Shown piece after piece: positions 11,590-25,180 of a stretch of 28,460 nucleotides of DNA. The notes under the pieces were generated by a model that was not told the DNA's origin, ran no database searches, and was given only the letters and a program-made list of their open reading frames with translations. The stretch covers positions 1-28,460 of the forward strand of contig JBJKSP010000051.1 of assembly GCA_046703865.1 (NCBI GenBank), written 5' to 3'. This DNA is from Thiobacillaceae bacterium (lineage in GTDB: Bacteria; Pseudomonadota; Gammaproteobacteria; Burkholderiales; Thiobacillaceae). Position 1 is the first letter of the stretch; each line of letters starts with the position of its first letter. The position numbers were made by a program, and so were the translations under genes.

Positions 11590-12806
11590 ATGCCAATACC
11601 CGGGTTACCAAGACTGTTGCTTGTCACCTTGGCCCTTGCGCTCTTCGCTACGGTGGGTTACGAAGCTCAGCGCCTGGCGGGACTGGGCAGCGCCTTCACG
11701 GCCAAATATATGTGTTCCGAGGTCTTTGTGGGAGGGAGCGATGCCGATACGGTGGCCCGAGTCGATCTACCCGCTTTCCACTCCTTCATCCTGAGTTTGG
11801 CGGACTGGCACCTCGACAAGGCAGGCGATACCGTGAGCGCCGACATCTTCGGCGCCGGCCGGCACAGGGCCGTCTATCGTCCCGGACTGGGATGCACCCT
11901 GGTCTTCGACCGCCCGCCCGTCCCCGTGCGGGTGCCGCAGCCCCACGCATCGGGGCGGCCGGATGACTTTCCCCCGCCCGCCCTGAGAAAGGTGAGTATC
12001 CTGATTGAATGGGGACGTCTCAGGCTCACGGCACCGGCACCGGCACCGGTCCCGGTCCCGGTCCCGGAATGGTCAAGCCCGACTGACCCTCGCCATGCCA
12101 TCACTCTGGACGAGTTGCTGCACATGTCGTCGGGCCTGGAATTCGACGAGAGTTACGACGATCCGCTCTCGGACGTAGTGCAGATGCTCTATGGAACGGG
12201 TGACAGCGCGGCCTACGCGGCTGCCGAACCCCTCGCCACACGCCGGAGAGGCACTTCAGCTATTCCACGGGCACCACTGCCGTCCTGTCCCGCCTCATCG
12301 CCCGATCGCCGGGCGAGACCTACCCGGTGTTCGCCCGGCGTGTCTTGTTCGCTCCCCTGGGGATGACCAGCGCCCTCATCGAGCCCGATGCCACCGGGAC
12401 GCCCATGGGCTCGTCTTACGCCTGGGCCACCGCGCGCGATTGGGCACGCTTCGGGCTGTCATACCTCAACGATGGCGTATGGCGTCATCAGCGCATCCTG
12501 CCTGCAGGGTGGGTACGCTACAGCCGCACACCGGCACCCTCCGATGGGAAGGAGGAATACGGCGCCCATTTCTGGGTCAAGGTGCCGTCCCCCGACCGTA
12601 CCGAACCGGGCAGGCCCTATCTGGTTTCCCCCGATGCCTTTCATGTCGCCGGCCATGGCGCCCGGTATGTCACGGTCATCCCCTCGCTTGATCTCGTAGT
12701 GGTTCGCCCGGGCCTCACGCTGGACCCCGAAGCCTGGGATCACGAGGCGTTCCTGCACGACGTGGTGGAGGCCTTGGGCAAGACGCCAGTTCCCGTTCGA
12801 CCGTAG
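11590..12806 (+). pseudogene. Serine hydrolase (beta-lactamase class C/NylB-like) with an internal deletion of SxxK and a 1-nt frameshift
   Basis: AKYMCSEVF, YRPGLGCTL and ITLDELLHMSSGL lie in frame 1. Restoring one C at about 12236 gives LAHTPERHFSYSTGTT...LFAPLGM...ATARDWARFG...YGAHFW. No SxxK motif is present in either part. Confidence 0.85.
12031..12066 (+). repeat. In-frame hexamer repeat (GCACCG)3(GTCCCG)3 encoding APAPAPVPVPVP
   Basis: Read directly from the sequence. Confidence 0.9.
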
Positions 12807-12819
12807 CGGAGGGAAAACC

Positions 12820-13155
12820 ATGAAAGCATCGGTCATCCTGATTCTTGGGCTCGTGTCAGCTTCATCGGCCTACTCAGACGTTCATCGGTGTGTGGTGAAG
12901 GGATCTGTGGTCCGCCGTAAGCACCACTCCAAGCCGTTGCCAACCGTTGAGAGTCATTTGAATCTCCTGGGGGGACCTAACGAAGCCGTTCATGAGAGCA
13001 CAGTGGCACAGTTGTTCGGTCATGAGCGGCATGTACGATGGCCGGCAGTTTCAGACGTTCTTGGATTCGGCCGGTCTGAAGTCTGTCGTGTATGGAGCAG
13101 GTCAACTCGAACGGTCGGCGACGCTGGACTTTACATCGACTTGCCCGTCTGGTAA
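12820..13155 (+). CDS. Hypothetical secreted protein, possibly a degraded DUF4124-like gene
   Basis: GGAGG SD, a signal-peptide-like MKASVILILGLVSASSAYS and DVHRCV. The rest is unrecognisable. Confidence 0.35.
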   Translation: MKASVILILGLVSASSAYSDVHRCVVKGSVVRRKHHSKPLPTVESHLNLLGGPNEAVHESTVAQLFGHERHVRWPAVSDVLGFGRSEVCRVWSRSTRTVGDAGLYIDLPVW

Positions 13156-13268
13156 GCCGCTGGCACAACACAGGACGGAAAAGGGCTGGCCTTTTCTCGT
13201 CAGATGCGGCTCGGCCTTTATGAAGCCGAAAGCTGAGAAATGTTGGAGACCAAGCGAGGACCCATGGG

Positions 13269-15962
13269 ATGAAGGTGGTGCATGTCAGTGCCAGTGACCG
13301 GCAAGGCGGAGCGGCGATTGCGGCCTATCGCTTGCACCAGGCGCTCCGTGCCCACGGCGTCGGTTCCCAGTTTCTGGTCCTGAGGAAGCAGTCTCAGGAT
13401 GAGACGGTCGAAGAGGTTAAGCCTGAGCCGCTTCATGAGCCCCGTTTGGTCCAGTCCGTCGCGGCGATTGAGAGCAGGTATGTTCATCGCAACCGTACGG
13501 AACTCAGCAATACTCATTTTTCGCTTTCCCTGCTGGGGTGCGACCTTTCCGCACACCCGGCGATTCAGTCCGCGGACGTGATCCACCTGCACTGGGTTTC
13601 GTCCTTTCAGACTCCCGCGACCCTGGGTCATCTCTTGGCAATCGGCAAGCCCGTGGTCTGGACATTGCACGACCTGGCGTCTTTCACGGGAGGGTGCCAT
13701 TTCCCGTCGAGCTGCCACCGTTACTGCTCCACTTGCTCGGCGTGTCCCCAGTTGCGGTCGGATAGCATGTGCGTTCCCGCGGCCGTGCTGCGTGATAAGC
13801 GGGAGCTTTGGTCGATGGAGAATCTGACTCTGGTCGCGCCTTCCCAATGGATGGCTGACCGGGTTCGCGGAAGTGCCCTCTTTCGAGCCGTATCGCGGGT
13901 GGCAGTGATTCCGCACGGGATCGACTCGCGCGTCTTTTCCCCTGTTCCTCGAAGGGAAGCGCGGGCGGCGCTCGGCATCCCCCTGGACGGCACGGTTCTG
14001 CTTGCCGGTGCCGACCACGGAGAAGAAAAACGCAAGGGTTTCCCCCTACTCGAACGCGTCTTCAGCGACTGTATTCAGGATCCGCGGTTCAAGTCGGCCG
14101 ATGGAAAGGTGCTCTGGGTGGGAGCCATGCCAGACCATTGGGCGGAACGAGATTGGCCAATGGCCCACTTAGGCAGAGTGGAAGAAGAACGCCGGATGGC
14201 GCTGGTCTACTCGGCTGCGGATATTTTTGTGTTGCCTTCGCTGGAAGACAATCTCCCCAACATGTTGCTCGAATCGCTTGGCTGTGCGATCCCTGTGGTT
14301 GCCTTTGGGGTGGGGGGGATACCGGAAGTGCTTCGGGACGGATGGAATGGCCACGTCGTTTCGGTCGGAGACGAGGGGCGATTGCAGCAGGCCATTCTCT
14401 CGCTGGCGTCTGGCCCGCTCGCGCGCAGAACCCTTGGCCAGAATGGCCGGGACATCGTCGCGACGGAGCATTCCTACTCGACGTTCGCCGCGCGCCACTC
14501 CGAGCTTTACCATGATTTGCTCGCCGACACCGAACGCAAAACGATTCGCCCGAAGCATTCCGTTCCCGTCACAGACGCCCAAACCGGGGCTGCGGCAATG
14601 GCCATGGACCCCGGCCCCGCTATCAGCGCGCTCTTTACGAGTCTGGCAAACCGATGCATGAACGAGAATGCCGATCGCCTGCAATTCGAGTTGCAGGCGT
14701 CCCAGGCGGAGTCCGAAGCGCGACAGAGAGTGATCGAGCAGCTACAGGCGCACTGCGGTCGGCTCGATGCCGAATGCGGCGCCAGGCTGGATCTGATTCA
14801 CCGCTTGGAAGCGGAATGCGTGGCTCGGTTGGACATCATCCACCGTTTAGAGGCAAGGTCTGCCCGGCGATTGGACGCAGACGAGGAACCTGGCTCATCG
14901 CCCTCGCAAAGGAATCGCCTAGCACGGGGCTTGGGGTGGATCCGATCAGTATTTCGAGTGAACAATTGGTGGTTTTCCAAACTGCCGCCGCTGCTGGCCA
15001 CGGCCTGCGTGCAGATTCTCCTATTGGGGATCACGGTTAGCCAGGGGGCCCTGTTGCTGGGCTGCGTCTTCTTCTCGATTGTCTGCGTCGCCTCGTATGG
15101 CCATGTCGTGAATGATCTCTTCGATGTGGATACAGACGCCCGTGCCGGAAAGCCCAATGCCGTGGCCCGGTTGGGCCGGCGACGGGCAGCAGCGATCTGC
15201 GTTGCCCTGGTTGGCGCCGGTTTTCTGCCCACTGCGGCCGTCGATTACTCGCCGTGGGGATTCCTGCTACTGTCGCTCAACTATTTGTGGCCGACGATCT
15301 ATTCTCTGCCCGGCATCCGCTTGAAGGAACGTGGCATCTGGGGAGTTCTCTGCGATGCGGCAGGCTCGCACGTCACGCCGACACTGTTCGTGCTGACGGT
15401 CTTTGCCCGCGCCGTGCCGTCCTTGGGCACCATCGCCATCGCCATCGCCCTAGTCGGGTGGTCCTGCGTTCTGGGGATCAAGGGGATCCTGAATCATCAG
15501 GCGGCTGACCGCGAGTGTGACGCTGCGTCGGGAACAACCACTCTTGTCGGAACCCTGTCGCCGGCAAGGCTGGAGCGATTCATGCCGCGGTACAATGTCG
15601 GCCTAGAATTCCCTTACAGCCTGGCGGTGGTTCTCGCCGTGCTGGAATGTTGTCCCCTAGCCGCCGTCGGCCTGCTGTTTTACGGCACGGTAGAATTAAT
15701 CAAGTATCGACTCGGTTTCCAGTTCGCCCTGAACGACGATCCGCGCAATACCAGAGCCAGCGTTCCGTTCGCAAATGACTTCTTCTACGAGATCTGGTTT
15801 CCTCTGGCAGTGACGACACAGTTGGTGCTTGCCAATCGAAACTGGGCCTGGTTCCCAATCTTGTGCGTCCTGCTCTTCTTTCGCAACTTTCGCGTCCAGG
15901 CAGGCGATCTCCTGGCCGTGGTCATGGCGTTGCGTTGCCGCCTGGCCCATCAATATCGGTAG
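13269..15962 (+). CDS. Fusion protein: GT4 (WcaC-like) glycosyltransferase + coiled coil + UbiA-family prenyltransferase
   Basis: GT4 motifs GGAAIAAYRLH, DVIHLHW, KPVVWTLHD..FTGGCH and DNLPNMLLE (D-x7-E). A 14-aa repeat coiled coil follows. The multi-TM C-terminus has NDLFDVDTD (15111-15137) and NHQAADRECD (15492-15521). One uninterrupted 897-aa frame. Confidence 0.88.
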   Translation: MKVVHVSASDRQGGAAIAAYRLHQALRAHGVGSQFLVLRKQSQDETVEEVKPEPLHEPRLVQSVAAIESRYVHRNRTELSNTHFSLSLLGCDLSAHPAIQSADVIHLHWVSSFQTPATLGHLLAIGKPVVWTLHDLASFTGGCHFPSSCHRYCSTCSACPQLRSDSMCVPAAVLRDKRELWSMENLTLVAPSQWMADRVRGSALFRAVSRVAVIPHGIDSRVFSPVPRREARAALGIPLDGTVLLAGADHGEEKRKGFPLLERVFSDCIQDPRFKSADGKVLWVGAMPDHWAERDWPMAHLGRVEEERRMALVYSAADIFVLPSLEDNLPNMLLESLGCAIPVVAFGVGGIPEVLRDGWNGHVVSVGDEGRLQQAILSLASGPLARRTLGQNGRDIVATEHSYSTFAARHSELYHDLLADTERKTIRPKHSVPVTDAQTGAAAMAMDPGPAISALFTSLANRCMNENADRLQFELQASQAESEARQRVIEQLQAHCGRLDAECGARLDLIHRLEAECVARLDIIHRLEARSARRLDADEEPGSSPSQRNRLARGLGWIRSVFRVNNWWFSKLPPLLATACVQILLLGITVSQGALLLGCVFFSIVCVASYGHVVNDLFDVDTDARAGKPNAVARLGRRRAAAICVALVGAGFLPTAAVDYSPWGFLLLSLNYLWPTIYSLPGIRLKERGIWGVLCDAAGSHVTPTLFVLTVFARAVPSLGTIAIAIALVGWSCVLGIKGILNHQAADRECDAASGTTTLVGTLSPARLERFMPRYNVGLEFPYSLAVVLAVLECCPLAAVGLLFYGTVELIKYRLGFQFALNDDPRNTRASVPFANDFFYEIWFPLAVTTQLVLANRNWAWFPILCVLLFFRNFRVQAGDLLAVVMALRCRLAHQYR
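14763..14876 (+). repeat. Diverged 42-nt (14-aa) tandem repeat, about 2.7 copies
   Basis: LDAECGARLDLIHR / LEAECVARLDIIHR / LEARSARRLD. Confidence 0.8.
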
Positions 15963-15994
15963 TTTAAACTCCATCGGAGAAGTAGGAGAACCGC

Positions 15995-16720
15995 ATGAAA
16001 CAGGACGCTCTCTGGCGTCTCTATGATGACGCCTATGCAGAGGAATACGAGGCGAAGTTCCTGCTCTCTCCTGCGACGCGGTTGCACAGCGATTTCGAAC
16101 TGGAATGGTTGCGTCGTTTCTTACACCCGACGGCGAGGTGGCTGGACGTGGCTTGCGGCACGGGTTATTTCTTGCGGCATTTTCCGGGTATCGAGCGAGC
16201 CGGTCTGGATCTTTCACCCGCCATGTTGCGATTGGCACGCCGGGGCAATCAAGATATTCCTCTGATTGAGCACGATTTTCGTGAGCCGCTGCCGGAATGG
16301 GATAACCAGTGGGACCTCGTCTCGTGCATGTGGTACGCCTACAGCCTGGTCGAGTCGATCGCCGAGTTGCAGCAGGTGATTCGCAACCTTTGGTCGTGGA
16401 CTTCGCCGTCGGGAAGCTGTTTTGTACCGCTGACCGATCCCTCGCTGCTGGCGGGAGTCACGATTCCCTACCGACCGGCAACCCCGTGGGACGGAAAGGT
16501 CGTGATCACCGGCATCCTTTGGAGCTATGTGGAGAACGATGGCAGGAAGGTGCACGCGCACTTGGTTGCGCCCAATGTCGAGTGGATGGTGGAGCAGTTC
16601 GAGAGATGTTTCGAACAAGTGGAACTCGTTCACTATCCCCCAGAGTTCCCCGGCTGGGTGGGCCGACCGGCGATCATGGCGTCAAGAAAGAGGCCCGCAA
16701 TCGTGGACGACGCGTTCTGA
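15995..16720 (+). CDS. Class I SAM-dependent methyltransferase
   Basis: Motif I WLDVACGTG, GLDLSPAML and WDLVSCMW; AGGAG SD; 32 nt after the fusion gene. Confidence 0.9.
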   Translation: MKQDALWRLYDDAYAEEYEAKFLLSPATRLHSDFELEWLRRFLHPTARWLDVACGTGYFLRHFPGIERAGLDLSPAMLRLARRGNQDIPLIEHDFREPLPEWDNQWDLVSCMWYAYSLVESIAELQQVIRNLWSWTSPSGSCFVPLTDPSLLAGVTIPYRPATPWDGKVVITGILWSYVENDGRKVHAHLVAPNVEWMVEQFERCFEQVELVHYPPEFPGWVGRPAIMASRKRPAIVDDAF

Positions 16721-16750
16721 ACGGAAGAACCGGCTCATGCGAACCGGTTG

Positions 16751-17995
16751 CTACGCCGCTCGCAGCTCCATTCGTCGGAAGGCGACGCCCAGGGGCCGAT
16801 GATCCGTACTCTGGAGATGAAGTTCACTGGGACGGAAGCGTTTCGGCGTGTGAAAGCTTACCCGAAGACGATCCCGCCACCGAGTCAGCACGGCTGCCGG
16901 CACCCGTCCTTCCCAAACGATGCGCCCTTCTTCCTGTCGAAAGCTGCCAGCTACTGGCTGGTCATTCACGATCACTTGGAAGCCTGTCAGCACGTCGGCA
17001 TGAATCACGTGCGCAACCGCGCACGTCAGAATATGGTCGCCCTGCTGGGCTGGCGCCTGGAAGTCCAGCCAGCTTCTTTCGCTCGGGCCCGCCCAGCAAA
17101 AGCAACCCTGTGCATCGAATTCCCGTTCATGCCAACCGGCGCCATGCAGAGGCTGGTCGAAGCGAAAATCCTGGAGCGATGGCAAGCGACTCGGCACGGA
17201 CGGGCATCCAGGACGTCGTTCGGCGATGAGTCTCCGCCCGTGCTCGTAAAGTCGCAGGTCAAGCTGATTCCACTCGATCAGGATGGACTGCGAGTCGGAA
17301 TCGAGCGAATCAAACGATGGACGATTGCTCGTCCGATTATCGTGTCTCGCAGCGCCGAATTCGCTCCATCCCATGCGTTTCGCCAACCATTCCATTGAGG
17401 CGTCCATTTCTTCAACCAGGCCGATCACGTCGCATCGATCGAGGTTACGGAGCGCATCGTTGAGTTGCGTTTCTCCCAGCTCCGGCAATTCGTGCCACTC
17501 AAATTCCTGGTTCAGCAGAAAACGAGTTTGCATGTTGCTCAACGCGGCGCGAGCCAAGTCTGGCTCACGGTGCAAAAACTCGACCATTGACAGTTCCTTG
17601 CTGCGGCGACACAAAAGGTACAGCCAGTCCGCCGTCGGGCTGGGTAACGTGCCGGCCACCGCGGTAAGCCGGTGAAACTCCGCACGGACATAGGCCCAAG
17701 CCGACATCGCCCACTCCAGCGGATTGCGAAGAAACGTCAGGACCACGCAAGGCTCGCGCAACCTGTCGACATAAGCAAACGTCACGTGCCCACGAATGAA
17801 ATCGTAGTCGTTGAGGTCGACAACTTGTTTCTCGTGGATGTCAGCGTCCAAGAAGCAGCGGTGATGGTCGAAACGCTGCCTAAGCATATTGGTAACAGAG
17901 GTGCCAGCCGTCTTGGGAATGTGCAAGAACAACAGCGCCGGTGACCGGCGATCCTCGCCAGCCCAGTCTGGCCCATCGAATGAGTTCTGCTTCAT
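16751..17995 (-). CDS. Sulfotransferase family 2 protein with an extra C-terminal beta-rich domain
   Basis: 5'-PSB motif FLHIPKTAGTSV, GHV, 3'-PB-like TFLRNP..WAMSAW, and LNQLDLRLY-like WNQLDLRLY. Confidence 0.88.
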   Translation of the reverse strand: MKQNSFDGPDWAGEDRRSPALLFLHIPKTAGTSVTNMLRQRFDHHRCFLDADIHEKQVVDLNDYDFIRGHVTFAYVDRLREPCVVLTFLRNPLEWAMSAWAYVRAEFHRLTAVAGTLPSPTADWLYLLCRRSKELSMVEFLHREPDLARAALSNMQTRFLLNQEFEWHELPELGETQLNDALRNLDRCDVIGLVEEMDASMEWLAKRMGWSEFGAARHDNRTSNRPSFDSLDSDSQSILIEWNQLDLRLYEHGRRLIAERRPGCPSVPSRLPSLQDFRFDQPLHGAGWHEREFDAQGCFCWAGPSERSWLDFQAPAQQGDHILTCAVAHVIHADVLTGFQVIVNDQPVAGSFRQEEGRIVWEGRVPAAVLTRWRDRLRVSFHTPKRFRPSELHLQSTDHRPLGVAFRRMELRAA

Positions 17996-18500
17996 GGCGT
18001 CAATGGTTCCTTTCTCGCCACCTGTAACAATGCGGCTTCCAGAGTAAGTATCCCCGGGTTGAAAGTCTCTACGATGAACAACCCCTCAAACGTCAAACTC
18101 CTACTGTCTCCCTTGGGAGGCTAGGAGGTCGTATTCGTTTGTGGCCGCATATCCAGAATGTAAGCACTTTGTAACTGGATTTCGGTAATTCGGATAGGTA
18201 CGGGTAAGCGCTTTCCGCGAAGGAAGGATAGAGGTGGCCCAGGAAAACTGGACAGAGTGATAAGTGCCGGGGAAACACCGAAAAAGTCGGCAGTTTGACC
18301 CGAGATGATGCGGCCGGATCGCGGAATAGAGCCTTCGAATCCGGAGGTACCCAATATTTCAGCACTATCACCCTCGAATCGAGGTTTGGAAGGGCGGCTG
18401 CGGCCTGTATTTGGCCCTTTCGGTCGATCACGGACGCACCTTGGGCGTCTCCGGCAACAATGCCTTGGGCCCCATGTGCCCATTGGCCAGGGCAAACAGC

Positions 18501-18610
18501 GATGGTGCCGCTTCTGAACATCAGACCCCGCTCGCGCAGCCGGGCGTTGATCGTCTCCCGCACCTGTGGGGCCAGCGCGTGGGCTTCACGGCCGCAAAGG
18601 CCAGATCGAC
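18501..18610 (-). mobile_element. IS5-family transposase remnant (about 35 codons)
   Basis: The minus frame reads GLCGREAHALAPQVRETINARLRERGLMFRSGTI. This resembles, from memory, the IS5 segment ...LEAHDL..QIFETINAHL.E.GLML..GTIVDAT, and it breaks just before the first catalytic Asp. No terminal inverted repeats identified. Confidence 0.6.
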
Positions 18611-18768
18611 AAAACTCAGCCGGGCACTCATGGGGGGCTTCCTGGGTGCTGGTTCGCTTGCCGTCCTTGCGCCTCAGGCTCAGGTCTTTGGCAGGAACAT
18701 CCAGTGCGGTCAAGCGAAGATCGTTCTCTCCTGCGCTTGTGGAGGGGTGAGCGCCCCAAAGCATGGTG

Positions 18769-19968
18769 TCACTCAACCGCCCAGCCAGCCCACCAGATCA
18801 GTAGCCCGAGTAGTGGGTCGGTGATGTCCGGCACACGCCCTGGCAGGTATCTCTGGTACCACTCCAACGTGACCCACACGCTGAACAAGACACCGCCGCC
18901 CAGCAGACTGACTCTGCGTCGATGGCGCTCGCCGGTGGCTATCCGTGCAAATGCAGCGAGCCCCAGGCTGAGCCAGAGCGTTTCGAGGATGTCGTGCATG
19001 CCGGCAAGGCTGCCCACGTGCGCGGCGAAGGGTATCCAGTTGAAGGGGAGATACCCGAAGAGGCTGTTGCCGGGTTGAACCTCCTCCATCACCTTCGCCA
19101 GGGCAATGGCTGCCAGGCCCAACGTGGCCAAGCCGCGCCGGTTCTGCCAGGTCAGCCGGGAGACGATGGCCAGCGACACCAAGGCTGCGCAGAAGAATTC
19201 CAGGGACAGTATCTGGTAGGCAACGACGACCTTGAGAAATGTCACGCCAAGGACCAGCGCCGCAAGTGGCGGCATCACCGGCTCCAGCATGACGCTGCGG
19301 GCAAGCATCCCGATGCTGAAGATCGATAAGCCATCCACGAGGGCCAGGTCGAAATTGAACAGTTCGGGATGACGCAGGGTGTGGGCGAAGGGGTACAGCT
19401 CAGCCCGGATGAGGCGCCAACTCGTGGCGGGGGCGTAGGGGAACAGTTCCGTAGTCGCCCATAACAGCATGGCCACCAAGCCCAGCATGGGCTGTGTGCC
19501 AGGGAGAAAGTATCGCTCCCGCCAAGTATACAGACGGCGTCCGATGGGGCTTTCGGATGACAGGCCAAGGGCCATCAGTGCGCCGATGAGGGTGCCCAGG
19601 GTGTTGTTGAAGATGTCCGCTACGGAGGAAACGCGGCGGGGTAGGGCCTCCTGAAGCAATTCCATGCAAAAACTGAGGGCGAAGCCCGTCATCATTGCGA
19701 GCGCCAACCCGGCAAACCGGTTGGATCGCTTCCAGAAACGACTCAAGAGAAAACCCAGGGGCAGATAGGCGAGAACATTGATGAGAATGTCCGAACCCGG
19801 CTCATAGGGCGGCCATGGCATAAAAAGGGGGTTGGTCCAGGGATGTGGCGCCCGCCAACCCCTGAATGGCAATAGGCTGGCGTAAACGATGAGCAAAACG
19901 TAAAGAACGACCGACCACTTGAGTCTGATGAAAGCTCTATGAACGGAATCAGGCTCTGGTGATGTCAT
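18769..19968 (-). CDS. VanZ-family polytopic membrane protein
   Basis: YVLLIVYASLLPF, DILINVLAYLPLGF and MELLQ..LPRRVSSVADIFNNTLG; a second VanZ-like unit LEWYQRYLPGRVPDITD. Confidence 0.85.
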   Translation of the reverse strand: MTSPEPDSVHRAFIRLKWSVVLYVLLIVYASLLPFRGWRAPHPWTNPLFMPWPPYEPGSDILINVLAYLPLGFLLSRFWKRSNRFAGLALAMMTGFALSFCMELLQEALPRRVSSVADIFNNTLGTLIGALMALGLSSESPIGRRLYTWRERYFLPGTQPMLGLVAMLLWATTELFPYAPATSWRLIRAELYPFAHTLRHPELFNFDLALVDGLSIFSIGMLARSVMLEPVMPPLAALVLGVTFLKVVVAYQILSLEFFCAALVSLAIVSRLTWQNRRGLATLGLAAIALAKVMEEVQPGNSLFGYLPFNWIPFAAHVGSLAGMHDILETLWLSLGLAAFARIATGERHRRRVSLLGGGVLFSVWVTLEWYQRYLPGRVPDITDPLLGLLIWWAGWAVE

Positions 19969-20327
19969 GGTTAAAAATTGAGCATGGCCGGGCGTTGTTG
20001 AAATCAGGGATGCTTGGATCGAGATGTGGCCGGAATTCTAAGGGTAGCGCCTCCATGGCGAATCCCCCTTTTGTGCACCCGATGCGCCGCCTTACCCATG
20101 GGTCGCTGCATCTCGATGAGCCGTGACAGGGCATCCGCACCGAACCACACCCGTATGCCCTGGGAGCGGGGCACGACATCCGTTGGCGGGCCGGACCATG
20201 CTCAAATACTTTCACCTCCTGCGTTTTCGAACTTGTGATAGGCACCCGAGCCTGCCCTTCACGATCTGAACCGGTCATCCTCCCGGTGGTCTCAAACATT
20301 GAGTATTACTGACAAGGAGGTTGATTG

Positions 20328-21155
20328 ATGAAGTATCGAATACTTGCAGTTTCCATCGCTTTGGCGCTGACCGCACCCCTGGCAGCCACAACCGCCTCGG
20401 CGGCCGACACGACCACGCCGGCGACGCCGCCCCAGGTTCAGATGCAGACCACCGGTGGCTACCTTGGGGTGCTGCTGGGGCCGGTTCCCGACGTGTTGCG
20501 TGCACAGTTGGGGGACATCCTGCCATCCGGTCAGGGTGTGCTGATCCGTGAGGTCGAAGCCGGTTCGCCGGCAGCCAAGGCGGGGTTGAAGGCCTACGAT
20601 ATCCTGATCGGCTACAACGATCAGAAGCTGTATTCGGCGGACCAGTTGAGCCATCTGGTCCGGGCGGACAGCCCCAACACGACGGTGACGCTGAGCCTGG
20701 TGCGGGCCGGCGCGGTGCAGCACATCCAGGTCACGCTCGGCCAGATTCAGGGGCAGCCTGAAACTGTCGTTCCGCAGTTGGGGATGCGCATGCATCGGCA
20801 TCATCCCGGTCCTTACGCTACACCGCCAAGCCCTTACGCAACTCCCCCGGGCCTGACCGAGGGCAACTGGGCAAGCTTCGACTCGCTCTCGCTCAAGAAG
20901 CTGGAAGACGGGAGCTTCAAGGCCGAGATCCACTATCGCGGCGACAATGGCAAACTGGTGAAGCAGTCGTTCACCGGCAGCCTGGATTCGATCCGGGAAC
21001 AGGTCACGGACCAACAAAACCTGCCGCCCATTGAGCGCCATCAGCTCCTGGAGGCGCTGAGTGCGAGGGACGAATTCTTCATCCCGCCCCCCGGCCAATG
21101 GTTTGCGCCGCGCTTCTACATGCCCCAGTGGTTCTACTGGCAACCCGGCTTCTGA
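20328..21155 (+). CDS. Secreted PDZ-domain protein without a protease domain
   Basis: AAGGAGG SD; signal peptide; GYLGV...GVLIREVEAGSPAAKAGLKAYDIL PDZ motifs. Confidence 0.85.
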   Translation: MKYRILAVSIALALTAPLAATTASAADTTTPATPPQVQMQTTGGYLGVLLGPVPDVLRAQLGDILPSGQGVLIREVEAGSPAAKAGLKAYDILIGYNDQKLYSADQLSHLVRADSPNTTVTLSLVRAGAVQHIQVTLGQIQGQPETVVPQLGMRMHRHHPGPYATPPSPYATPPGLTEGNWASFDSLSLKKLEDGSFKAEIHYRGDNGKLVKQSFTGSLDSIREQVTDQQNLPPIERHQLLEALSARDEFFIPPPGQWFAPRFYMPQWFYWQPGF

Positions 21156-21196
21156 GAAGTCGCCGCAGGGCTGCAGCCGACGGCCCCGACAGTTGA

Positions 21197-21227
21197 GAAA
21201 ACGGGCACCATCCAGGTGCCCGTTTTC
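21197..21227. terminator. Intrinsic terminator, potentially bidirectional
   Basis: GAAAACGGGCACC-ATCCA-GGTGCCCGTTTTC, a perfect 13-bp inverted repeat downstream of the PDZ gene. Confidence 0.8.
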
Positions 21228-21439
21228 ATTGGGCGCGATGCCGGATCTCCGAGATGATGGAGCCCGGTTGGAAGTCGGCATGCCCCCATGGAACGAGCTT
21301 AGCGCCCGGGTTACATTACGGGATCGATCCTGACCGTCGATCCGTCGAAGCTATCAGTATGATTGGCCCCCGGGGACGGATAGGTAGCGGGTCCTCTTTC
21401 CCGACACCGCCGACCGGCGCGGTTGTTCTAAGGATGCAA

Positions 21440-23437: not shown

Positions 23438-25180
23438 TTGCGCGCCTTTCCCCCCTGCCCGCCGACCGTGATAAGGACAATAGTCAAGCCATATCGTCTC
23501 CTGTATGGTCGACTTGCGGATCTAGTGCGGAGCCGTCCAGCCCGGACATCCGTGCTGCAACCACGCGATTTCACGCAACTGCCACATGCAGCACGCCCGC
23601 CAGAGGTGGCAGTCATTCCAGAAAGGCTCGCCGGACTGAGCGCTCAGGGTTGGTTCGCGCTGTTCTGTGCCGCCCATTTAGTGATCTGGGTTCTGGTGCC
23701 CAGCCTGATGTATCACAACCTCCCCCACGATACCCTCGAGGCCATTGCCTGGGGCAACATGTGGCTGGCAGGCTACGACAAGCACCCTCCTCTCGCCCCC
23801 TGGCTGAGTGCCCTTGCCTCTGATCTTGGCGGGACGGTCGGCTGGCCCGTGTTCGTGCTGTCCCAGTTCTCCGTGCTGGTGTGTTTCTGGGCCGTTTGGC
23901 GCGTTGCGCTCCGGATGGTGGACCCTTGGCTGGCCCTGGTCTCGGTGGTGCTGCTGGAGGGCATCAACTACTACAACCTCGCCGCATTCAATTACAACCC
24001 GAATGTGGCTATGCTGCCCACCTGGGGCCTTTTGAGCCTAGCCTTCTACCGTGCGCTGACCAGGCAGAACCTGTGGAACTGGGGCCTGGTCGGATTGTGC
24101 GCAGCGCTCGCTTTCCTGGCCAAGTAAGAAACGGCGGTATTGGTCGCCGTGTTGCTGGCGCTACTGGCCATGACCGGGGAAGGCAGGTGTTCCTTCAAGC
24201 GGCCGGGCCTCTATCTCGCCATCCTTGTGGCTGGCGTGGTGGTGACGCCGAACCTGATTTGGCAGGCCAAACACGATTTCATCGGCCTGCACTATGCCCT
24301 GGGGAACATGACGGTGGGTACGAGTCCCTACACGGAAGACGCCAGCTCCTTCTCCGACCGGCATCACTCCACGGGATTCATGATCGATCAGTTGCCGGCC
24401 TTATTGCCTATGATGCTGCTCTTTCTGCCCCTGATCCGAGGACGGGGGGAGAGGCCGGAAGTCGGAGATTTCGACCGCAGGTTCGTCCTCTTCCTGGCTC
24501 TGGGGCCACTATTCCTCACGCTTGCGGGCGCGGTTATTTTGAAGGCCGAACTGATTACGCGTTGGGCCTACCCTTACTTTTCCTTCGCCGGGCTGGCGCT
24601 GGTCGTGGTCTTCAAGCCTGTCCTGACACAAAAGAGACTCGCCACCTTTCTGCTGGCGACATCTGCCTTCTCGGCATTGCTGGTGTTCGCGTGCTACTGG
24701 GTCATCTACGTCAGGCCTTACCATACCGGCAAGCCCCCTTTTTCCATCACCTACCCCGGACGGGAAATCGCGGAGGAAGCCACCCGGGCCTGGCACCGCC
24801 AATATTACCGGCCCCTCAAATATGTCGTCGGGGAGAGAAATCTCGTCGCTGCCGTGGCGGCCTATTCTCCCGACAAACCTATCCCCTATTTCGACGGCAA
24901 CCCGCCCGAAAACCCCTGGGTGGACGAAACCGTCATGGCGCAGAAAGGCGCCTTGTTCATTTCAACTCTGCGCGGGGCTGCCCGGACCTCTCCGTTCATC
25001 CTGGATCTCAAGAAGCGCTTTCCCAACCTCGTGGACGATCAGACCTGGGTATTTGCCCAGGCCACCCGCGCACCGTTACCCGCCGTGCGCATCTGGTTTG
25101 CGTTCCTCCCGCCTCAGGAACCGGCTGCTTCACAGATTCAAGGTGTCGGAAAACATCTCCCCGCGACTGTGCAGAAATAG
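23438..25180 (+). pseudogene. GT39/ArnT-like membrane glycosyltransferase interrupted by one in-frame TAA (24125-24127); start uncertain
   Basis: DTLEAIAWG, GYDKHPPL and YNPNV; FLAK*ETAV continues in the same frame through PNLIWQ...TRWAYP to TAG at 25180. Confidence 0.82.

Follow-up and report, generated by a model that had tools for sequence, protein, structure and literature searches.

A contig of a Thiobacillaceae bacterium carries, side by side, genes for a glycosyltransferase fused to a UbiA-like membrane domain, a methyltransferase and, on the opposite strand, a sulfotransferase. Do these genes belong to one pathway, and what would that pathway make? We analysed a stretch of 28,460 nucleotides, the window (contig JBJKSP010000051.1, positions 1 to 28,460), whose features are collected in Table 1. 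The gene calls bore out the arrangement given in a preliminary description made from the letters alone. The fusion gene is preceded, about 8 nt upstream of its start, by the Shine-Dalgarno sequence GAGGA. The methyltransferase gene follows after 32 nt with a Shine-Dalgarno sequence of its own (AGGAGA), and the sulfotransferase gene converges on it across a gap of 30 nt. No terminator had been seen in this gap, which agrees with our folding: the spacer contains a short inverted repeat and no T tract, and its fold is no more stable than those of shuffled sequences (z = -0.73). Within the window, no exporter or further glycosyltransferase adjoins the three genes; a PMT_2-type GT-C gene lies 5.4 kb from the sulfotransferase gene.

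Table 1. Positions of the genes, domains and spacer in the window
Feature	Position	Strand	Length	Basis
GT4-linker-UbiA-like fusion P0001	13269-15962	+	897 aa	
GT4 (GT-B, retaining-type family) glycosyltransferase domain, P0001 aa 1-434	13269-14570	+		Pfam, alignment, PDB
P0001 linker, aa about 435-544	14571-14900	+		Length variability in homologues
P0001 UbiA-like intramembrane domain, aa 545-897	14901-15962	+		Pfam, AF2/Foldseek, motifs
Class I SAM methyltransferase P0002	15995-16720	+	241 aa	Pfam, adjacency, fusions
Convergent intergenic spacer	16721-16750		30 nt	No significant hairpin or terminator
Sulfotransferase P0003	16751-17995	-	414 aa	
PAPS-type carbohydrate sulfotransferase domain, P0003 aa 1-262	17210-17995	-		Pfam marginal, motifs, Foldseek
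C-terminal beta-sandwich, CBM6/CBM35-like, P0003 aa about 263-414	16751-17209	-		AF2, Foldseek
PMT_2-type GT-C gene	23438-25180			

Domains of the three proteins

Residues 13-420 of P0001 match GT4 domains of Pfam (Glyco_trans_1_4, E 1.8e-18; also Glyco_transf_4 and Glycos_transf_1), and the PDB entries matched by sequence are GT4 enzymes without exception. This domain carries a conserved Cys-rich insert and an acidic ED...E motif; E326, D327 and E335 are invariant in the alignment of P0001 homologues (A1). The linker contains a helical repeat of two 14-residue (two-heptad) units at about residues 500-530, a putative coiled coil. No other part of the GT4-UbiA-like family varies so much in length: in 13 full-length homologues the linker measures 51 to 181 aa, and units are duplicated. 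In the membrane domain, residues 577-834 match Pfam UbiA (44 bits, cut-off 34.2), and the predicted structure, of about 10 helices (AF2, pLDDT 89.1), confirmed a UbiA fold: its best Foldseek match is AfUbiA (4tq4, E 9e-6), with DGGGPS, Rv3806c and UBIAD1 among the top matches. The relation to the characterised UbiA enzymes is remote (TM 0.45-0.6), DGGGPS being the only one found by sequence (E 3e-6), and donor and acceptor are therefore guesses. The domain belongs to a large uncharacterised clade (650 clusters at E<=1e-30). The motifs NDxxDxxxD (N615-D623) and DxxxD (D747-D751), together with Y678, R684, K686, D696, H701 and H743, are 94-100% conserved among 132 domains of all architectures; with both Asp-rich motifs kept family-wide, the domain looks like a catalytic hub. 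GT4 is found N-terminal to it in the window and C-terminal to it in another locus (L089), so both termini of the hub should lie in the cytoplasm, in keeping with the roughly 10 helices of the model. Family members are also fused to CBM_4_9 and Nucleotid_trans domains.

P0002 is matched by Methyltransf_25/11/12 of Pfam (E 2e-10), and the solved structures nearest to it are those of TylM1, DesVI and CalS10, which are sugar N-methyltransferases (E 1e-9). For P0003 the Pfam match is marginal (Sulfotransfer_2, 23.1 bits, cut-off 22). The sulfotransferase call is supported because the PAPS-binding motifs are present, a 5'-PSB loop of the PKTxGT type (aa 27-33) and a 3'-PB motif, RNPxxxxxS (aa 90-98), both invariant or nearly so among 20 homologues (alignment A3). 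The best PDB matches of its AF2 model (pLDDT 89.9) are heparan sulfate 6-O- (5t05) and 2-O-sulfotransferases (4ndz, 3f5f), with E from 1e-7 to 1e-6. The C-terminal beta-sandwich, with modelled strands at aa 292-413, has no Pfam match; Foldseek relates it to CBM6E (8j3x) and CBM35 (2w47), and it is conserved in fusion proteins that join the sulfotransferase to the UbiA-like domain or to the methyltransferase. The model thus points to a carbohydrate sulfotransferase of the heparan-sulfate type that carries a CBM6/35-like domain. A search of the window MAG, which is 86.7% complete, turned up no APS kinase, the sole match being the P-loop of FtsY; the PAPS donor for P0003 is therefore putative.

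Fusions and recurrence in other genomes

Firstly, the activities occur fused in pairs. In metagenomic locus L061, a 914-aa GT4-UbiA-like gene is followed after 58 nt, on the same strand, by a gene for a methyltransferase-sulfotransferase fusion (P0124), whose methyltransferase part shares 61% identity with P0002 (E 2e-107) and whose sulfotransferase part shares 41% identity over 97% of P0003. Another protein, P0088, joins a sulfotransferase (34% identity to P0003 aa 14-411, E 1e-53, the BLASTP alignment reaching residue 411 and hence the C-terminal domain) to a UbiA-like domain with 50% identity to P0001 (E 1e-105). In P0238 and P0239, methyltransferases with 40-44% identity to P0002 are fused to the UbiA-like domain. 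These sulfotransferase- and methyltransferase-UbiA-like fusions have almost no spacer. L089 encodes a fusion in reverse order (UbiA-like-CBM_4_9-GT4), and in Eremiobacterota (L011-L014 and L074) the UbiA-like and GT4 genes are separate, in that order. The opposite orientation of the window sulfotransferase had been held to weaken its link to the other genes. We found it to be no weakness, because fusions join methyltransferase to sulfotransferase, each of these to the UbiA-like domain, and GT4 to the UbiA-like domain; in L061 the sulfotransferase is co-directional besides.

Secondly, the association recurs among 35 distinct UbiA-like loci (locus groups). A methyltransferase adjoins the UbiA-like gene in 19 of them and a GT4 in about 20. 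This methyltransferase is of the P0002 type (55-65% identity, in about 19 locus groups) and keeps company with the UbiA-like domain more faithfully than any other partner. Sulfotransferase or PAPS-synthesis genes lie beside the module in 12 of the 35. The sulfotransferases are drawn from four families (Sulfotransfer_1 in L008, L047 and L006; Stf0, PF09037, in L048, L050, L062 and L070; Sulfotransfer_2-like in the window, L052, L061 and L095; Sulfotransfer_3 in L089), and CysNC, CysD, CysQ and TauE adjoin the module in L006, L072 and L091. Several well-flanked loci (Cupriavidus, Eremiobacterota) have no sulfur genes, and sulfation is therefore optional in the module. Trans-polyprenyl-diphosphate synthases adjoin the UbiA-like gene in three of the 35 loci (L087, L088 and L089; Pfam 143-180 bits), whose UbiA-like proteins are more distant family members (33-40% identity). 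Wzm/Wzt(Wzt_C) exporters, orthologous and with 72-96% identity to one another, lie beside the module in four locus groups, with examples in L048, L050 and L062, in Cupriavidus basilensis OR16 and in a Rhodocyclales MAG. The setting ranges from a compact 5-gene form (L062) to modules inside larger clusters with GT2, GT4 and Gmd/Rmd (L006 and Cupriavidus). Neither a lack of co-occurrence nor different taxonomic origins of the three genes was found. These recurrent loci and pairwise fusions support the earlier proposal that three genes with four activities make up a single undescribed system, and hence the assignment of the window genes to one rare pathway.

A candidate pathway and its alternatives

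We consider it probable that the pathway, organised around a membrane hub, makes a prenyl-lipid-linked sugar chain, that is a glycolipid or lipid-linked glycan, which is methylated and sulfated. Between the envelope lipid and the small molecule proposed at the outset, the Wzt_C exporters, the CBM-like domains and the putative coiled coil point to a lipid-linked glycan or glycolipid over a small diffusible metabolite. Assembly would take place at the cytoplasmic face of the inner membrane. The UbiA-like hub, which retains the Mg2+/diphosphate-binding Asp-rich motifs of UbiA-type prenyltransferases, would most likely attach a trans-polyprenyl diphosphate to the first building block and so make, or hold, a lipid-linked primer. 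GT4, standing above the hub on a helical stalk of variable length, would add a sugar from a nucleotide sugar; the TylM1-like P0002 would methylate the sugar with SAM, and the heparan-sulfate-type P0003, with its own CBM-like domain, would sulfate the sugar chain with PAPS. Where the module has one, the Wzm/Wzt(Wzt_C) ABC exporter would flip the finished lipid-linked product outward; in the window genome, the Wzm/Wzt pair of a Gmd-Rmd-Wzm-Wzt-GT2 locus on contig C238 could do so. Whereas domains, motifs, folds, linkage and fusions are observed, we infer the chemistry, the product and the UbiA-like reaction, along with the substrate of that domain, the order of steps, the length of the glycan and its final location.

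P0001 might instead be the ruler-type terminator of an undecaprenyl-PP-linked O-polysaccharide, which we regard as possible though unlikely. [quoted passage not shown] A coiled coil in the terminator protein is a hallmark of ABC-transporter-dependent O-polysaccharides with chain-length control (E. coli O9a/K. pneumoniae O3 WbdD-WbdA, K. pneumoniae O12 WbbB, O7 ORF6; PMC11231755). As in those systems, a coiled coil of variable length (putative here) is tethered to the inner membrane and bears a cytoplasmic glycan enzyme at its distal end; in the module the length of this stretch changes by whole repeat units; the caps are small non-sugar groups (methyl, methyl-phosphate), and Wzm/Wzt with the Wzt_C carbohydrate-binding module adjoins several module loci. 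The multi-glycosyltransferase clusters with Gmd/Rmd and the C238 locus are likewise consistent with a terminator. However, the membrane end of P0001 is a domain of roughly 10 helices with the full catalytic motif set conserved across its family, not an amphipathic helix. The methyltransferase and sulfotransferase are separate, or fused to the membrane domain without spacer, which puts the capping enzymes at the membrane rather than the distal end. Sulfate is not an established cap, trans-prenyl-PP synthases lie beside some members, and no polymerising glycosyltransferase lies near the compact 5-gene modules or the stand-alone trios (window, L008, L047, L061).

It is improbable that the UbiA-like domain acts as a DPPRS/PPPRS. 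In that reading, polyprenyl phosphate would be coupled to a phosphosugar diphosphate, PRPP for example, and the resulting lipid-linked sugar would be glycosylated, methylated, sulfated and flipped for a periplasmic GT-C to decorate another glycan with it. PPPRS fused to a soluble enzyme is established in O-polysaccharide loci (the phosphatase-PPPRS fusion ORF15 of C. youngae O1/O2; PMC11127046). Like this protein and M. tuberculosis Rv3806c, the module would act on an isoprenoid lipid at the cytoplasmic face, and it combines a UbiA-fold membrane enzyme with a fused soluble sugar-pathway enzyme in surface-glycan loci. PMT_2-type GT-C genes occur in L006, L007 (there with GtrA) and the window, and the structural matches include Rv3806c (8j8j, E 8e-3). 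Against this, a specific sequence relationship is not detectable: a PDB search with the domain profile missed Rv3806c even at E<=1, the better NCBIfam matches include no DPPRS-type model, and AfUbiA and DGGGPS stand well above Rv3806c in the Foldseek ranking. Most loci have no GT-C and GtrA genes; the partners are GT4, methyltransferase and sulfotransferase rather than phosphatase, epimerase, GtrA and GT-C; and the synthases in some loci are of the trans-type diphosphate kind, unlike what a polyprenyl-phosphate acceptor pathway would need.

More improbable still is a specialised-metabolite cluster for a small compound (quinone-like or terpenoid) that is prenylated and methylated before it receives sugar and sulfate. 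Quinone pathways do follow a similar logic in pairing UbiA with a methyltransferase, fusions to PhyH dioxygenase or to weak prenyltransferase/terpene-cyclase-like alpha-alpha toroid domains occur in some family members, and L089 has radical SAM/SPASM genes. Yet the sulfotransferase fold is carbohydrate-directed and comes with a CBM-like domain, CBM_4_9 fusions and Wzt_C exporters occur, the nearest methyltransferase relatives act on sugars, and aromatic-precursor genes were seen in no locus. Chance adjacency, with the sulfotransferase belonging to a minus-strand run (97 nt downstream of a 227-aa ORF and a VanZ gene) unrelated to the plus-strand pair, is scarcely credible, being contradicted by the fusions with full-length homology to the window proteins, by the convergent sulfotransferase in the same place in L008 and L047, and by the absence of VanZ and of the 227-aa and 329-aa ORFs, of no assigned family, from every related locus.

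Relation to archaeal prenyltransferases and sulfated lipids

The hub also bears comparison with the archaeal ether-lipid prenyltransferases DGGGPS and AfUbiA (6m31, 7bpu, 4tq4), which are its best sequence and structure matches. They share the region of the first Asp-rich motif with it, and their prenyl transfer to a non-aromatic hydroxyl is the chemistry proposed here. In contrast to them, the hub is bacterial and fused to glycan enzymes, has extra helices and a beta-hairpin, and carries AGKPN in place of the canonical basic/Pro segment after motif 1; identity is only about 16-18%, with TM about 0.5. Sulfated envelope lipids are known in mycobacteria (sulfolipid-1, made with Stf0, and sulfomenaquinone, with Stf3) and in haloarchaea (sulfated diglycosyl diether lipids). 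The window sulfotransferase differs from these in being Sulfotransfer_2/heparan-sulfate-like with a CBM-like domain. In the module, as in those cases, PAPS would serve to sulfate a glycolipid or isoprenoid lipid of the membrane, and Stf0-family genes are present in its compact form.

The trio in the window and its predicted activities

The preliminary description had the methyltransferase (MT) gene following the GT4-UbiA-like fusion gene after 32 nt with a Shine-Dalgarno sequence of its own, and the sulfotransferase (ST) gene converging on it across 30 nt with no visible terminator. The three ORFs are intact, their coordinates and spacings agree with this layout, and the hairpin in the 30-nt spacer is not significant. 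Scanning 12800-18300 for promoters and terminators returned zero promoter-like sites, and terminator-like sites at chance level; G+C is level across all three genes.

Coordinates of the trio and of other genes in the window
Gene	Positions	Strand	Features
Beta-lactamase-like ORF, first	11590-12366	+	Beta-lactamase profile positions 67-135
Beta-lactamase-like ORF, second	12327-12806	+	Beta-lactamase profile positions 168-305; overlaps the first
P0001, GT4-(putative coiled coil)-UbiA-like fusion	13269-15962	+	897 aa, intact
P0002, SAM methyltransferase	15995-16720	+	241 aa, intact; 32 nt 3' of P0001; AGGAGA Shine-Dalgarno
P0003, sulfotransferase	16751-17995	-	414 aa, intact; converges on P0002, 30-nt gap
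227-aa ORF	18093-18776	-	no Pfam match
VanZ-domain protein	18769-19968	-	399 aa
329-aa ORF	20292-21281	-	no Pfam match
229-aa PMT_2 ORF	23438-24127	+	PMT_2 (GT-C, ArnT/PMT-like) match stops at ORF end
346-aa ORF	24140-25180	+	no Pfam match; 12 nt 3' of the PMT_2 ORF

The glycosyltransferase part of P0001 (aa 13-420) is matched by five Pfam GT4-clan models (GT-B, two-domain), and the acidic motif E326, D327, E335 of its C-terminal domain is invariant in the alignment of the fusions (A1). P0002 is a class I Rossmann-type MT (Pfam Methyltransf_25, 11 and 12) whose glycine-rich SAM segment, D51-x-A/C-C54-G-T56-G57, is invariant or nearly so in the MT alignment (A4); its nearest solved relatives are sugar methyltransferases. 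P0003 has a marginal Sulfotransfer_2 match (23.1 bits against a Pfam cut-off of 22), and a PDB sequence search with it returned no matches. In 20 homologues the residues of its PAPS-binding motifs, 5'-PSB (P27, K28, T29, A30, G31) and 3'-PB (R90, P92, S98), are either invariant or conserved at 90% or more. With its AF2 model (pLDDT 89.9), the best Foldseek matches are heparan sulfate 6-O- and 2-O-sulfotransferases at E 1e-7 to 1e-6 (sulfotransferase matches 5t05, 4ndz and 3f5f), and the C-terminal beta-sandwich resembles CBM6/CBM35 modules. The NCBIfam matches of all three proteins lie far below threshold.

The window spans an entire 28.5-kb contig, one of 466 in an 86.7%-complete MAG. The alanine transaminase encoded there shares 88-91% identity with Thiobacillaceae proteins. 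In the window, the trio has neither an exporter nor another GT beside it. The flanking genes (a 111-aa ORF, the beta-lactamase-like pair, EcsC, the 227-aa ORF, VanZ, the 329-aa ORF and PMT_2) were compared with related loci and excluded as parts of the module, none being conserved with it. Several deserve mention in their own right. The beta-lactamase-like pair lies a short way 5' of the module and resembles a serine hydrolase gene broken by a frameshift or by mis-assembly. The VanZ-domain protein, a type for which an action on the head groups of lipid carriers has been proposed (PMC12419801), is encoded on the ST strand between the 227-aa and 329-aa ORFs; these three genes are likewise not conserved beside the module in other loci. 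The PMT_2 ORF and the 346-aa ORF that follows it may together represent a single GT-C gene, interrupted by a frameshift or an assembly error; a PMT_2 gene is also present in a large related cluster, L006.

A divergent UbiA-like domain as the hub

Of the five UbiA (PF01040) matches in the genome, that of P0001 (aa 577-834; 44.0 bits, cut-off 34.2) diverges most. Its Asp-rich motifs, NDxxDxxxD (N615, D616, D619, D623) and DxxxD (D747, D751), are invariant in A1 and in the alignment of the UbiA-like domain (A2). Among 132 domains the residues of these motifs are 95-100% conserved; taken with a set of basic and His residues, the range is 94-100% across all architectures. Because this conservation is family-wide, we consider the hub catalytic, or at the least able to bind Mg2+-diphosphate, rather than a passive anchor. 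The AF2 model (pLDDT 89.1) has an all-helical intramembrane UbiA fold, matched with Foldseek probability 1.00 to 4tq4, 7bpu, 6m31, 8j8j, 4od5 and 8djk; AfUbiA and DGGGPS come closest in structure, ahead of Rv3806c, ApUbiA and UBIAD1. A PDB sequence search with the family profile (E<=1) recovered DGGGPS only. Since sequence retrieves DGGGPS alone and AfUbiA and DGGGPS are nearest in structure, the hub is predicted to be a remote, uncharacterised branch of UbiA, distinct from the polyprenyl-phosphate phosphoribosyltransferases (DPPRS/PPPRS).

An ESM Atlas feature search returned only generic 'UbiA family' clusters. Among 1.84 billion proteins, the UbiA-like profile found 2302 representatives, 650 of them at E<=1e-30 (clusters at 50% identity). 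Members stand alone (~340-370 aa), are fused to GT4, ST or MT, or take the forms MT-UbiA-like-PhyH(-TPR), weak prenyltransferase/terpene-cyclase-like toroid-UbiA-like-PhyH-TPR, UbiA-like-Nucleotid_trans and giant UbiA-like-(CBM_4_9)n of up to 2994 aa. In the giants P0223 and P0225-P0228 (1551-2994 aa) an N-terminal UbiA-like domain precedes the CBM_4_9 arrays. A sub-branch is fused to, or adjoins, PhyH-type Fe/2OG dioxygenases and TPR regions (P0239, P0260, P0266; loci L090, L092, L095); the weak toroid lies at the N-terminus of some of its members, and L092 holds two PhyH-UbiA-like pairs. At the more distant loci L087, L088 and L089 a trans-polyprenyl-diphosphate synthase gene adjoins the hub gene, which hints at a genuine prenyl-diphosphate donor for the hub. 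The first Asp-rich region of the synthase looks CrtE-like in L089 and IspB-like in L087 and L088.

Co-occurrence and fusion of the four predicted activities

The contexts of UbiA-like genes, scored by tblastn and Pfam, comprise 35 distinct locus groups, and in these the UbiA-like, MT and ST genes co-occur recurrently, as the proposed link between them predicts. Conservation is highest for the P0002-type MT (55-65% identity), which adjoins the UbiA-like gene in 19 groups; the pairing is found in several gene orders. A P0001-type GT4 is fused or adjacent in about 20 groups, and sulfur genes are present in 12. Full-length GT4-UbiA-like fusions at 38-50% identity number about a dozen metagenomic clusters, and relatives of the fusion occur in the genomes of Cupriavidus basilensis OR16 and of four Eremiobacterota/Vulcanimicrobiota MAGs. 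Eremiobacterota carry the UbiA-like and GT4-coiled coil parts as separate adjacent genes in the opposite order. In Cupriavidus (AHJE01000121.1) the GT4 (408 aa), a 113-aa ORF and the UbiA-like ORF (376 aa) are consecutive in different frames, which may be a true split or reflect sequencing frameshifts in the draft assembly.

The sulfotransferases are of several kinds. Sulfotransfer_1 genes lie convergent exactly like the window ST in L008 and L047 and upstream of the module in L006; Stf0-type genes (PF09037) occur in L048, L050, L062 and L070, Sulfotransfer_2-like genes in the window, L052, L061 and L095 (with weak candidates in L046, L076 and L085), and a Sulfotransfer_3 gene in L089. The PAPS genes CysNC-CysD-CysQ-TauE are immediate neighbours of the module in L006, L072 and L091. 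That four non-orthologous sulfotransferase families have joined the same partner is difficult to account for other than by a sulfated product in common.

The link itself is settled by fusions. The 652-aa protein P0124 joins an N-terminal half 61% identical to full-length P0002 (E 2e-107) to a C-terminal part with 41% identity over 97% of P0003; at its locus, L061, its gene lies 58 nt 3' of a 914-aa GT4-UbiA-like gene on the same strand. In P0088 (778 aa) a full-length P0003 homologue, CBM-like domain included, is combined with a UbiA-like domain, and a convergent P0002-type MT gene is also present at the locus. P0238, P0239 and P0260 each have a full-length P0002 homologue joined directly to the UbiA-like domain, and L089 encodes a fusion in reverse order, UbiA-like-CBM_4_9-GT4. 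The predicted GT4, UbiA-like, MT and ST activities are thus tied together by fusions somewhere (GT4-UbiA, ST-UbiA, MT-UbiA and MT-ST). The opposite orientation of the window ST had been held to weaken its link to the other genes; given these fusions and the co-directional MT-ST of L061, it is not evidence against the link.

The distant relative cluster in L089 (3985-14140) further contains three GT4 genes, the polyprenyl synthase gene, genes for two radical SAM/SPASM proteins, a 558-aa Sulfotransfer_3 protein and a Wzt-like ATPase, besides the reverse-order fusion.

The predicted product and competing readings

Carbohydrate signals dominate as to the type of product predicted: the fold of the ST and its CBM-like domain, the CBM_4_9 fusions, the sugar-methyltransferase relatives of the MT, ABC exporters (Wzm/Wzt) with the carbohydrate-binding module Wzt_C, clusters with Gmd/Rmd, and the ruler-like linker. 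Orthologous Wzm/Wzt with Wzt_C stand beside the system in L048, L050, L062, Cupriavidus (L043) and a Rhodocyclales MAG; when O-polysaccharide is exported in an ABC-transporter-dependent way, Wzt_C is the module that reads its terminal caps (PMC11127046). In a Rhodocyclales MAG (L009, 10001-17972) a GT4-coiled coil protein lacking the hub (49% identity) is followed by Wzm and Wzt, 74% and 78% identical to those of the module, and then by a UbiA-family gene of far greater divergence (26% identity). The extent of the loci differs: the module is embedded in multi-GT clusters with Gmd/Rmd in L006 and Cupriavidus, is a compact set of five genes that includes only one GT in L048, L050 and L062, and consists of the trio alone, with no other GT or exporter nearby, in the window, L008, L047 and L061. 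The five genes of L062 encode the fusion, MT, Wzm, Wzt and Stf0; the Cupriavidus contig carries GT4, the 113-aa ORF, UbiA-like, MT, two GT2 genes, a further GT4, Wzm and Wzt.

We consider it probable that these genes form a single pathway, organised around the membrane hub, whose product is a methylated and sulfated glycan or glycolipid linked to a prenyl lipid. The strongest competitor, to which we assign a minor share of the probability, is a pure ruler or terminator role on Und-PP-linked O-polysaccharide. The linker between GT4 and hub, a putative coiled coil with two-heptad repeats, varies from 51 to 181 aa across the family by whole two-heptad units, which would match the signature of the WbdD/WbbB-type coiled-coil molecular rulers used in ABC-transporter-dependent O-polysaccharide assembly (PMC11231755); the relatives L043, L048, L050 and L062 also share with those systems a partner Wzm/Wzt with Wzt_C. 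The trio-only and five-gene loci, however, point away from a simple accessory cap, and they fit a self-contained pathway in which the hub would supply the lipid-linked primer. A DPPRS-like lipid-sugar donor pathway is improbable. Candidate companions of the DPPRS type occur (PMT_2 in L006 and L007, GtrA in L007, and the possibly split PMT_2 5.4 kb away in the window) but are absent from most other loci; the hub has no detected DPPRS-specific sequence similarity, DGGGPS being the only PDB entry found by its profile, and Rv3806c is a weaker, structural match only (E 8e-3). A small prenylated metabolite, set against the carbohydrate signals, is more improbable again, and chance adjacency of the genes is very remote, given the MT-ST and ST-UbiA-like fusion proteins P0124 and P0088.

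A fuller version of the membrane-hub pathway is tentative at best. The clade would consist of new intramembrane prenyltransferases that put a trans-polyprenyl chain on a sugar or small polar primer by DGGGPS-like ether chemistry, making a dedicated anchor independent of undecaprenyl phosphate; the GT4 would build a short glycan on it, the coiled coil would set its length, methyl and sulfate would cap it, and CBM-type recognition and Wzm/Wzt would lead to export.

No description of the UbiA-like clade or of the module was found in the literature searched, in which the UbiA genes discussed for O-polysaccharide loci are of the DPPRS/PPPRS type. Those reported in Xanthomonas LPS cassettes belong to an arabinofuranose (DPPRS-type) system and not to this clade. 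We rate lipid-linked glycan assembly, small-group capping and ABC export as already known, and the undescribed UbiA-like hub organising them as new. The module links four predicted enzyme activities to one domain of a large clade with no studied member, whose fusion partners range over GT4, sulfotransferase, methyltransferase, PhyH dioxygenase, TPR, CBM_4_9 arrays and Nucleotid_trans. Surface-glycan assembly would have a novel mode of initiation or organisation here, should the hub make or hold a lipid-linked primer. The pathway, if true, would offer genetic access to sulfated glycans of bacteria, about whose biosynthesis little is known, and would test whether sulfate serves as a glycan cap read by ABC exporters. 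It is directly testable: Cupriavidus basilensis OR16 is a cultivated carrier, and the five-gene form is small enough for heterologous expression.

Neither the domain nor the module was found in 40 related genomes (24 belonging to the family and 16 to the order) or in 400 genomes sampled from the phylum; the module is rare and patchy, as expected of an accessory surface-structure cassette. An APS kinase was not found in the MAG, the sole, weak PF01583 match being rejected as the P-loop of FtsY; the kinase may be encoded in the portion of the genome that the assembly lacks. Some relatives carry PAPS genes of their own beside the module. Elsewhere in the same genome, a 7.2-kb contig (C238) holds a second locus for surface glycans, which is truncated by both contig ends and encodes Gmd (82% identical to that of L006), a Rmd/epimerase-like protein, Wzm, Wzt, two acyltransferases and a GT2. 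This Wzt, the only candidate in the genome, is 39% identical to the module Wzt and has a weak Wzt_C match (21 bits).
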